From the NCBI GenBank assembly GCA_021785355.1, contig JAJYFR010000001.1, positions 263,096 to 327,095 on the forward strand: 64,000 nucleotides of DNA, given 5' to 3'. Source of the stretch: a bacterium (GTDB taxonomy: Bacteria > Patescibacteriota > Dojkabacteria > JAKAPS01 > JAJZLI01). Position 1 is the stretch's first letter; each line of letters opens with the position of its first letter. This document shows, in pieces, positions 51,001 to 54,000 of the stretch. The position numbers were made by a program.

Positions 51001-54000
51001 TCATTATTGATATTTTCTCTTAAAATATCTTCTGTCATTATTTTATCTCTTATATCATTTCTTGGATCATTTGATTTTAGAATATCTTTATATGAAGCAT
51101 TATCATATAAAAATATTTTTACATCCTTCTTTTTTAATTTATTTATTAAATTTAAAAAATATCTATTTATTCTACCATCAGATAAATATTCAGAAAGGAT
51201 TTTATTATTTTTTAGCTCAAATTCATTCTCTGATATATTTTTATCTTTTATAAAATCAAATAAATTTTTATTTAGCTCTATTCCTACTTGTGATATATTT
51301 AATAAATCTATTAAATATTCATATACTAAATAATTTTCTTTTATTCCATGAACTTCTCCACAAATTATAATATTGGTTTTTAAAAAATCTTCTTTTAAAA
51401 GATTCAATGTTTCTATACTATTTATTTTTAAAATTTTTGATAGATTATTCATTTATTTTATTAATAATAAAATCTGCTATAGATTTAGATATAGGTAAAT
51501 TTAATGCATTTTCAATCCATAAATATTGACCATTAGGGTTTATTTCTAAAAAATATATTTTACCTTCCTTATCTTGTATAAGGTCAATAGCAGAGTAATT
51601 AAGATTATAATATCTATTTAATTTGAACAGTATATTCTCTATATTTTTAGATAATTTATATTCTTCATATGTTAAATTTTTGTAATCAGTTCTAAAATCT
51701 ATTTTTGATTTTTTTGAATGAGAAAATATTTTTGCTGTGAAAATTTTATCTCCAATAATAGTAACTCTTATGTCACAAACTTTATCTATAAATTCTTGGC
51801 AAATAACTGGAGAGAAATTCAGGTCTATTTTTTTAATATCTTCTATATATGTTAGAGTTGATTTAATAATTCCATCTTCTAGTCCAAAATTTTGAGACCT
51901 GATACTTTTCATTATAAACTTATCTTTGAAATAATCAGAAATGATATCATTTTTATTTGTTATTATAGTTTTGGTATTAACAAAGAATTATCACTTATAC
52001 TATCTAATACCTTTAGTTGATTAAGTTTATAACTTGCATTTTGGATATTTATTATATTGTTAACCCATTTTTTAATTGGAATATTTAATATACTTCCTAA
52101 TAAAAAATTCTTTTTTTCTATTTTTATTGAATAATGATATATTTCTTTTTTATTATTCATAATAAGTATTATACATAAAAGAAAAAAAAGTTTCATGATC
52201 TTCTTTCTAATGCTTTTCTTTTTTATCTTTTTTATATTACCAATCTTTTTAGTATTTCCACTTTGAGTTTTTGGACAATGTAATCTTCATTTTTAAAAGT
52301 CTATGCAGATACTTTATCTATGAATTAATTATGTTATATGTAATAAGTACATAAATAGCAAAGTTTTATTTTATTAATTTGATAGAACTCGGAATATGTT
52401 TATAAATAATATTTAATTATGTTTTTTTGCGAGAGTTAAAATATTTAGTAATATTATTATTCGTTTGTATAGTTAATATAATATTCTTTTTCCCAATTCT
52501 TAACATCAATATTTTTAATTTCTATATTATTTAGTTCAAAATATTTTTTTAATAAGTTTTTTAATTTGGTTACTACATCTTTATCGTTTACTTCTTCTTC
52601 ATACTCCCAGGCTCCTAAAAAAGAATATAATTTTCTTCTTCTTGGTATTTTTTTTATCCAAATTTTAGATTCTAAGGTATTAGCATTATGATAACCTATC
52701 ACATCTGTATAGTCTCCATATGCATCTCTATTTTCATATAATATATATCCTTTTCCTATAAATAAATTTTTAATAATAAACCTATGATATAACCAATCTT
52801 TGGTATTTAAACCATTTTTTAAGGTAATTTTGTAAACTCCTGAGATAGATTTATTTATTTCTTTTTTATTATTCATAGTAAGTATTATATATGAAGGAGA
52901 AAGGGGAATAAATACTGGTTATGTTAAAAAACATAAAAAGATTTATTCCCCAGTCCTTTACTTGAACAAGATCCTCCAACTATAGAGGAAATATGTTACT
53001 AAGTAAGAGAGAAGTAAATCTACTTTCCGATAGTTCCGAATTCTCCAGTGGAATAGTCATAACTCCAACCTTTAGGAGATGATCCTTCTGGGTCATGTCT
53101 GTATATCTTATAGACATCTCCATCCTTTTTAGAAGTTTCATGACCTCCTTTCCAAAACTTCCCTTTTCCATCATCTTTGTAGTCCCAATCTTTTCCATGT
53201 TCCCATTTTGAGTTCTTGGACACTATATTCTCCCTTTTTAAAGGACTGTAGATACTTTATCTACAAATTGATTATGTCATATTAATAAATTTCATGCATT
53301 GCCATGCATAGCAAATCTTTGTTCTATTGATTTAGTAATTCTATTTGTACATATTTGCCTGAGATACAAACATTTTTCTATATTTCCCATTAATATGCAT
53401 TAATTCTGTATGTGTTCCTTGTTCTATAATTTTTCCTTTATCTAGAACAAGTATTTTGTTTGCATTTTTTATAGTTGAGAATCTGTGAGATATTATTAGT
53501 GTAGTTGTATTTTCAGTAATCTTATATATATTTTTAAATATTCTTTCTTCTGATAAAGCATCTAGAGAGGCGGTAGGTTCATCTAATACTATAAATTTAG
53601 GATTTCTAAATAATGCTCTTGCTATTGCAATCTTTTGTTTTTGTCCTCCTGACAAATTAGTTCCTTTTTCAAAATCTGAATCTAGAAGTGTGTCATATTT
53701 ATAATTTAGCTTATCTATATCATGTTCTATATTTGCATCTTTAGATGATTTTTTTATAAGGTTAAAGTTGTTTATATTATTAATATTAGAAAGAGAAATA
53801 TTTTCTTTGATAGAAAACCAAAAAAGATAATATTCTTGAAATAAAACTCCCCACAATTTATAGTAACTTTTAAGATCTATATTTTTTATATTTATATTAT
53901 TTATTAAAATCTCTCCTGATGTTGCATCATAAAATCTTGCAAGTAATTTTATTATGGTAGACTTTCCTGCACCGTTTCTACCTACAATTGCTATACTATC

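Follow-up and report, generated by a model that had tools for sequence, protein, structure and literature searches.

A conserved 67-codon gene in a probable palindrome-marked cassette near a graspetide locus of a Dojkabacteria genome

We analysed a 64,000-nucleotide stretch of DNA from a bacterium of the Dojkabacteria (Patescibacteriota; GenBank assembly GCA_021785355.1, contig JAJYFR010000001.1, positions 263,096 to 327,095 of the forward strand), which we call the window and number from its first letter. The window is chromosomal, with genes for LeuRS, ArgRS and ribonucleotide reductase. On its reverse strand, near an operon for a graspetide, a ribosomal peptide modified by an ATP-grasp enzyme, lies a gene of 67 codons that a preliminary description of the window had proposed as a second graspetide precursor. 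We found that this frame is a real small-protein gene under strong purifying selection over its entire length. Together with conserved elements on both sides, it probably forms a self-contained cassette of ~420 bp that does not encode an ATP-grasp substrate peptide. The features of the cassette, followed by two neighbouring features, are:

53299..53314, no strand assigned: operator-like 16-bp palindrome TTGCTATGCATGGCAA (copy D), ending 76 nt before the GTG
53278..53283, reverse strand: candidate -10 hexamer TAATAT, suggested by the near-invariant block TTA(T/G)TAAT(A/G)TG in a five-lineage alignment
53247..53265, reverse strand: leader stem-loop, an 8-bp inverted repeat TGTAGATA-aag-TATCTACA, from the perfect repeat and comparative data
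53231..53245, reverse strand: small hairpin UCCUUU-AAA-AAGGGA pairing with the Shine-Dalgarno sequence (GGGAG, 53230..53234), from the consensus fold of the leader
53020..53223, reverse strand: 67-amino-acid (aa) protein-coding gene, GTG start and TAG stop, from substitution ratios, invariance and guanine-cytosine (GC) content
52980..53198, reverse strand: overlapping alternative-frame open reading frame (ORF) of 72 aa, non-coding, with substitutions sitting at third positions of the 67-aa frame
52958..53002 (approximate; core stem 52972..52989), reverse strand: hairpin 1 of the 3' untranslated region (UTR), with two pairs changed on both sides
52903..52951, reverse strand: 3' UTR hairpin 2, GGGGAAUAAAU...AUUUAUUCCCC, with a nested AUGUU-UUUU-AACAU hairpin and then a U/C-rich tail
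52457..52876, reverse strand: gene of the 139-aa 'domain A' protein, which belongs to no known family; it lies downstream of the cassette, as a neighbour that differs between lineages
52189..52365, reverse strand: decayed paralogue of the whole cassette, with half an operator, the leader, the first ~30 codons and three in-frame stops

Five lineages carry the full-length gene at the DNA level, namely the window and the contigs L001/L002/L003, L015/L016, L017/L018 and L019; one extra contig, L010, has a shortened, lineage-specific version. The genome scan recovered the L003 lineage alone, and the other lineages came from a look-up of cluster members. In a word-indexed search of 5.8 billion clusters, the peptide matched one cluster, which holds seven distinct sequences. 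An exhaustive HMMER search of 1.8 billion representatives returned nothing closer than that cluster, and a pattern scan of the Joint Genome Institute metagenomes gave no additional copies.

The ORF at 53020..53223 translates from its GTG into exactly the peptide first described, and the Shine-Dalgarno core GGGAG (53234..53230), the strong site that had been claimed, lies 6 nt ahead of that codon. Across the lineages the start codon is GTG or TTG and never ATG, and the ribosome-binding site is also kept; the gene is probably strongly expressed. ORF length by itself is not significant in this genome, and the case for a gene depends on the comparison between lineages. The pairwise ratio of nonsynonymous to synonymous substitution rates (dN/dS) over the five lineages was 0.06-0.28 at dS values of 0.5-1.4, and the window and L001 differed at 6, 4 and 26 sites in codon positions 1, 2 and 3. 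Invariant residues make up 38 of the 67 in the seven family sequences. The GC content of the ORF, 39.7%, lies in the top 0.3% of 204-nt windows in DNA that is 25% GC overall.

The alternative ORF at 52980..53198, mentioned in the preliminary description as a competing frame on the same strand, is indeed present. Comparing the two frames in the five lineages showed that selection acts on the 67-codon frame and not on the overlapping one. The alternative ATG is gone in L017 and L019 and the encoded sequence diverges freely. This +1 frame is free of stops in all five lineages, which we regard as a side effect of G/A-rich codons in the selected frame. An antisense ORF seen in L001 is broken in the window. 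The decayed paralogue offers a further comparison. It is 60% identical to the 67-aa protein over 30 aa by tblastn, its GC content has fallen to 24.4% as against 39.7% in the intact copy, and its G-rich codons are eroded. Since this copy shows what happens to the cassette without selection, the intact copy is a maintained protein-coding gene.

Next to the decayed copy we observed further debris. The beginning of a 'domain B'-like ORF and two pieces of an ATP-grasp gene are fused to it (the intervals involved are 51963-52196 and 51445-51912, both on the reverse strand). The larger ATP-grasp piece (51445..51912) shares 74% identity with the intact 605-aa ATP-grasp enzyme of the window and 70% with the 320-aa enzyme of L001. 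The whole looks like what is left of a second module or cluster.

In the leader, a scan for consensus sigma-70 promoters called none, TAATAT included. If the candidate -10 hexamer is used, it would put the transcript start near 53270, just before the stem-loop. The inverted repeat behind it had been reported as perfect and as possibly a second operator or an RNA hairpin. We confirmed the perfect 8-bp repeat, TGTAGATA-aag-TATCTACA, at 53247..53265. In DNA of 25% GC, perfect 8-bp repeats around a 3-nt loop are common (10 in the window versus 3-9 in shuffles), and the significance of this one can only come from comparative data. Over the five lineages 97.5% of the cells in the stem are paired, and the stem is kept as 7-8 bp in four of the five and is weaker in L001. 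At pair 7 the window has U-A and L017 has U.G, and L015, L019, L010 and L001 all have C-G. A G.U intermediate is tolerated by RNA and not by a DNA palindrome recognised by a protein, and this series therefore favours a stem-loop in the RNA, at the transcript's 5' end or close to it, over a second operator, although a single covarying pair among five sequences is not statistically significant. The small hairpin next to it, which includes the Shine-Dalgarno sequence, is paired in all five lineages, yet it is almost invariant and so gives no covariation test.

The 3' side is similarly constrained. In hairpin 1, the pair changes on both sides are G-C/A-U and C-G/A-U. Folding of this composite structure gives a z-score of -5.1, and the sequence of hairpin 2 is ~90% conserved, compared to 62% for third codon positions. 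Over the whole 3' structure (~52903..53002), 95% of cells are paired in the five lineages and three pairs are changed on both sides; 14 of 500 shuffles reached its covariation score. A permissive Rfam scan of 52700..53450 found only sub-threshold similarity to 3'-hairpin RNAs, and across the entire window no Rfam family scored as high as its gathering threshold. Hairpin 2 and its U/C-rich tail look like a terminator. Identity between the window and L001 is 81% in the leader and 81-88% in the 3' region but 62% at third codon positions, and hence both flanks of the gene are constrained.

The palindrome ahead of the leader marks more than this gene. Copy D ends 76 nt from the GTG, as first described. 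Five copies occur in the window (43931-43946, 49774-49789, 53299-53314, 57254-57269 and 63385-63400), a number reached by none of 100 shuffles of the window, and the site is kept upstream of every homologue of the 67-aa ORF. Its consensus is TTGC(C/T)AT(G/A)CAT(G/A)GCAA. Related contigs hold additional copies (L004 at 3735, 8488 and 14209; L005 at 5655 and 7305; L007 at 6390 and 9718; L009 at 423; L001 at 249, 2469 and 8092). The distance to the gene behind it is 30-76 nt, always 61-63 nt for graspetide precursors and 74-76 nt for the 67-aa gene. Within the window and related genomes, the palindrome also stands ahead of genes for NUDIX, MazG and DUF2268 proteins and for proteins with only a GreA C-terminal domain (GreA_C), of an S9-peptidase unit and of precursor genes. 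This distribution points to a clade-wide regulon that is wider than the biosynthetic cluster. Two paralogous XRE regulators (57484..58284, forward strand; 62525..63280, reverse strand) lie divergent from palindrome copies C and E. The C-terminal domain of these helix-turn-helix proteins is uncharacterised.

From the palindrome to the 3' hairpins, the unit is conserved as a block while its flanks change. The 67-aa protein is 84% identical between the window and L001/L003, the highest value in the neighbourhood, where the S9 peptidase reaches 69%, the 139-aa protein 56%, the ABC (ATP-binding cassette) transporter 55%, the ATP-grasp protein 52% and a hydrolase 48%. The gene downstream of the cassette encodes domain A in three cases (the window, L010 and L019); L017/L018 have an unrelated 'domain B' gene of ~100 aa there, and L001 has a fusion of A and B. 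The genes upstream likewise differ among lineages. A fixed two-gene module with the 139-aa protein was rejected, given the other downstream gene of L017/L018 and the fusion in L001.

The 139-aa neighbour was no help as a clue to function either, as AlphaFold2 returned a low-confidence ferredoxin-like model without a significant match in the PDB. Its gene lacks a purine-rich Shine-Dalgarno sequence, unlike the 67-aa gene and the precursor gene upstream. The stretch before its ATG (52877-52905, reverse strand), CCCCUUUCUCCUU, is anti-Shine-Dalgarno-like and is the tail of the 3' hairpin. In L010 (2972-3085), a deletion of codons 39-67 and of the 3' hairpins has cut the 67-aa gene to 37 codons and puts a 138-aa domain A gene directly behind the conserved operator-like site and leader. 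The remaining codons differ from the window by 9 nonsynonymous and 4 synonymous changes, a relaxed substitution pattern. We did not accept this truncation as functional evidence: it is a lineage-specific deletion, and the close relative L019 has the full gene.

The product is a 7.7-kDa protein with 12 Lys, 11 Gly, 8 Asp, 4 Glu and 4 Trp residues and a grand average of hydropathy (GRAVY) of -1.66. The preliminary description had spoken of repeats rich in Lys and Asp/Glu. The composition holds, whereas the repeats are not significant, since the best self-alignment is matched by 8% of shuffles. Each Trp has a Lys within two residues upstream (p ~ 0.01). In the family, the four Trp are all invariant, as are most Gly and three of the five Tyr; aromatic residues amount to 16% of the protein, are mostly invariant and alternate as in beta-strands. 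Invariant as well are K11, D12, D14, K16, D18, K20 and K22, and the variation is concentrated in a predicted loop at residues 44-51. From a two-sequence alignment, AlphaFold2 predicted an all-beta meander (predicted local distance difference test score 72.8, predicted template modelling score 0.51) with strands at residues 8-13, 27-34, 37-43, 51-56 and 61-65. We conclude that the protein is hydrophilic and aromatic-rich and probably all-beta.

Database scans gave no family for it. The peptide had zero matches in Pfam, NCBIfam, PHROGs and PADLOC scans, Pfam matched none of the seven family members at E-values up to 10, and searches of PDB sequences, run once with the peptide alone and once with the profile of seven sequences, found nothing below E = 0.4. 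The 67-aa family is a new orphan family, not a new kind of system. Three known kinds of small gene product were considered and dropped. Carriers of the LysW/ArgW type have zinc-ribbon cysteines and an acidic C-terminal tail of the EDWGE type; the 67-aa protein has no cysteine and ends in G-T-I-G-K. A toxin-antitoxin reading found no defining feature. A Lys-Trp or cyclophane-type modification was set aside because no radical-SAM enzyme is present among the ORFs annotated between 42.6 and 64 kb. A looser analogy exists with DUF397 proteins, the partners of XRE proteins with DUF5753 (mentioned in PMC13097080 and PMC8939145), which are also ~65 aa long and belong to loci of Actinomycetota, graspetide loci among them, under XRE-type regulators. 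The 67-aa protein, however, has no DUF397 match, does not lie beside XRE genes and comes from a phylum other than Actinomycetota, so the likeness is one of analogy only.

We put the probability that the locus is a self-contained small-protein cassette, and does not encode an ATP-grasp substrate peptide, at roughly 60%. We propose that the promoter is switched by a dimeric regulator, for which the two XRE proteins divergent from other palindrome copies are the probable candidates. The transcript would begin just before the stem-loop, which would stabilise its 5' end, and the mini-hairpin beside it may partly mask the ribosome-binding site. At the other end, the 3' hairpins would end a short monocistronic mRNA, stabilise it and keep read-through into the downstream gene low. 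The product would be a very hydrophilic, aromatic- and Gly-rich cytoplasmic protein. It would fold as a small antiparallel beta-sheet and function as a protein, perhaps as an accessory in the regulon or in stress that binds a partner through a conserved Trp/Tyr face and the segment of alternating Lys and Asp at residues 10-22.

Several observations weigh against this reading. The promoter and the transcript ends of the gene are inferred. Only a few closely related lineages have the family, and the conservation statistics come from only five DNA sequences. The AlphaFold2 model is based on only two sequences, and Foldseek searches with it against the PDB and BFVD gave E-values above 0.2. The invariant residues K11, D12, D14, K16, D18, K20 and K22 could equally well be cross-link sites as a salt-bridge surface. 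In two of the five lineages, the window and L001, an ATP-grasp maturase and an ABC exporter are encoded no more than 4 kb away from the gene. Finally, contigs L010, L017 and L019 span 4.5-6.1 kb, and an ATP-grasp gene may lie farther out in these genomes.

One alternative is that the product is a disordered, hydrophilin-like stress protein, induced with the regulon, that protects macromolecules non-specifically. Hydrophilins are defined by a Gly content above 6% and a hydrophilicity index above 1, and the 67-aa protein, with 11 Gly in 67 residues (16%) and its strongly negative GRAVY value, fits this physicochemical definition. Members of the class are also unstructured in solution and induced when water is short or under other stress. 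It also resembles hydrophilins in its extreme hydrophilicity, small size and inducible-looking promoter, has no hydrophobic core segment and no family or fold match, and shares its palindrome with nucleotide house-cleaning genes (NUDIX, MazG) in a regulon that also includes GreA-like genes. Against this reading, the aromatic residues of the 67-aa protein, 16% of the total, are mostly conserved position by position and alternate like those of beta-strands. AlphaFold2 predicts a beta-sheet with moderate confidence from two sequences, and dN/dS values down to 0.06 together with position-specific invariance exceed what selection on composition alone would produce. We therefore consider a disordered protectant unlikely.

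The second graspetide precursor of the preliminary description, or a protein-sized ATP-grasp substrate, would work differently. A ligase would join Lys amines, possibly also Thr/Ser, to Asp/Glu carboxylates by ATP-dependent dehydration, with a loss of 18 Da for each ring, and the ABC exporter would then secrete the product. The setting invites such a reading. In the window the operon of precursor, ATP-grasp enzyme and ABC exporter is immediately followed by the gene, in L001 the gene lies 3 kb upstream of an ATP-grasp cluster, and its palindrome is the same as at true precursor genes. The decayed paralogue is joined to an ATP-grasp fragment. The gene is short and hairpin-terminated with a strong ribosome-binding site, as structural genes of modified peptides often are. 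Five lysines (K11, K16, K20, K22 and K67) and nine Asp/Glu residues are invariant. Protein-sized substrates of this chemistry exist, such as corallotide, a large Lys-Asp lactam graspetide with KxxxD repeats (PMC13097080).

The clade's own precursors provided a direct comparison. Upstream of the 67-aa gene, on the same strand, lies the canonical graspetide precursor METDTITPFDWLKDEV...TTYTSSQPNDNDD (precursor C, 57045..57191), and the ATP-grasp protein of 605 aa (55197-57014, reverse strand) matches ribosomal-peptide maturases in its C-terminal half (TIGR04187, E = 8e-48; MvdC, MvdD). As cognate precursors we took six ORFs, namely precursor C and those just upstream of homologues of the 605-aa protein from four other genomes and of the 320-aa enzyme of L001. 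All six have in common the leader I-T-P-[LFI]-[DE]-W-[LI] and the core T-x-T/Y-[ST]...D-D-x-D-D. Both are missing from the 67-aa protein, whose first Pro is residue 45, and hhalign gave a probability of 0.08% against the six-precursor family. Missing too is the general proline-hydrophobic leader motif 'Phhx(1,2)h' of graspetides, which extends to the candidate phyla radiation (CPR; PMC8939145), falls in the first ~30 residues and has its counterpart in this clade in the I-T-P leader. A Gly-Gly at residues 26-27 was examined as a leader cleavage site and rejected, as G26 varies and the ABC exporter upstream of the gene lacks a C39 peptidase domain.

Conservation gave a similar picture. True precursors conserve the leader and vary the core, whereas the 67-aa protein is conserved uniformly along its length. 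Between the window and L001, precursor C and the corresponding 37-aa peptide are 21% identical, compared to 84% for the 67-aa protein. The two KxxxD/E motifs of the window copy (K25-E29 and K32-D36) both lose their Lys in other lineages. Seven of the twelve lysines vary, to Arg, Asn or Gln, and the invariant possible donors and acceptors comprise five Lys, four Thr/Ser and nine Asp/Glu. The protein is also predicted by AlphaFold2 to be folded.

The gene and the ATP-grasp loci come apart as well. Three contigs with the 67-aa gene (L010, L017 and L019, 4.5-6.1 kb long) carry no ATP-grasp gene, and on L017 and L019 the 67-aa gene is intact and under selection. Conversely, it is missing from the ATP-grasp loci of L004, L006, L007 and L009. 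The 67-aa gene stands as a unit of its own between its palindrome and its terminator-like hairpins, and because the palindrome also stands ahead of unrelated genes throughout the regulon, the shared operator is weak evidence for a precursor. Compared to the CPR graspetide precursors (PMC8939145, branches 1-2, and the six cognate ones), the gene is alike in being a short ORF with a strong ribosome-binding site, the same palindrome upstream, many potential donor and acceptor residues and a place in or near an ATP-grasp/ABC-exporter locus. It differs in lacking the leader and core motifs, in its even identity of 72-88%, in its predicted fold and in occurring away from ATP-grasp genes. The corallotide precursor CorA is a group 15 graspetide of ~22 kDa with five KxxxD lactam repeats, encoded in a strictly conserved cluster together with a synthetase, an oxygenase and a beta-lactamase (PMC13097080). 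As a protein-sized ATP-grasp substrate with Lys-Asp isopeptide rings, it represents the very chemistry that had been proposed for the 67-aa peptide. The latter has no significant internal repeat, no conserved KxxxD/E and no fixed enzyme partner. Without a clade leader, evenly conserved, predicted to fold and encoded apart from ATP-grasp loci, the 67-aa product is a doubtful precursor, and we disfavour this role.

In a more speculative version, which we also think improbable, the product is either a folded substrate or partner of the ATP-grasp ligases of the CPR or a natural single-blade propeller subunit. As a substrate, it could be a beta-sheet protein stapled by Lys-Asp isopeptides within the invariant G-K-D-W-D-Y-K-x-D-x-K-G-K and recognised without the usual leader; as a propeller blade, it could be functional only as a homo-oligomer. 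Either form, if true, would be new small-protein biology in ultra-small bacteria.

The blade by itself, as a single unit of a DUF5122-type beta-propeller that assembles into a homo-oligomer and may bind a ligand or glycan, we judge to be quite improbable. In its favour, the only matches of the exhaustive search of 1.8 billion proteins besides the orthologue cluster were five DUF5122 repeat proteins. Their repeats line up in register with residues 18-60, each at 34-42% identity, hhalign gave a probability of 76% against one repeat unit with two sequences, and the predicted strand order fits a blade. The likeness to DUF5122 (PF17164) covers ~43 residues in register (D-x-x-G-K-h-h-x-G-G ... h-h-R-x-[ND]-P-[DE]-G-S ... 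S-T-G) and an all-beta structure. However, the scores per repeat are only 5-16 bits, and the significant E-values for whole proteins are sums over 6-26 near-identical repeats. A single-repeat hidden Markov model scored 7.5 bits, which 1 of 1000 composition-matched shuffles reached, and the hhalign probability dropped to 59% with the seven-sequence profile. Pfam DUF5122 matches no family member, and the 67-aa protein has charged residues at several positions that belong to the hydrophobic core of the repeat. DUF5122 proteins have 6-26 tandem units, whereas the 67-aa protein has one and no significant internal repeat.

That the region is no protein gene at all, with another frame coding or the region acting solely as RNA, is hardly credible: the +1 frame does stay free of stops in five lineages and the flanking non-coding DNA is itself highly conserved, but the substitutions fall at third positions of the 67-codon frame with low dN/dS, the alternative ATG is lost in L017 and L019 as its sequence diverges freely, the antisense ORF of L001 does not stay open in the window, and the decayed copy, with eroded G-rich codons and three in-frame stops, looks as expected without coding constraint.

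Other genes of the regulon and of the graspetide loci deserve mention. Two genes for small proteins with only the GreA/GreB C-terminal domain (43677-43892, reverse strand, Pfam E = 3e-9; 63465-63698, forward strand, E = 9e-15) sit directly behind a palindrome copy, and the first is followed by the gene for a DUF3182 protein (42604..43569) with an unusually high GC content (35.7%). Behind copy B we found a 94-aa fragment resembling SagB-type dehydrogenases (49459-49743, reverse strand, E = 7e-9) and, after it, an S9 (oligopeptidase B-like) peptidase (47436-49451, reverse strand). At the equivalent palindrome of L001, a 60-aa ORF containing Pro, Asp and Cys (8171-8353) precedes the S9 peptidase (8374-10320). 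The S9 peptidase immediately follows the ATP-grasp gene in L004 and L006, which makes it a candidate leader peptidase. A RelB/YafQ-type toxin-antitoxin pair (50054-50586, reverse strand) lies between the degraded module and copy B. The ATP-grasp maturase of the window has an N-terminal extension of ~300 aa without a family match; most homologues in related genomes are 601-624 aa long, and the 320-aa enzyme of L001 lacks the extension.

In conclusion, proximity to an ATP-grasp gene, a shared operator and a Lys/Asp-rich composition are insufficient to call a modified-peptide precursor, and the leader motif of the clade itself offers a clean way to refuse such a call here. The palindrome regulon would link graspetide operons with GreA-like, NUDIX, MazG and S9-peptidase genes. 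The cassette itself adds to the Patescibacteria a small-protein family with unusually strong constraint on the protein, a non-ATG start, a probable 5' stem-loop and a structured 3' UTR.

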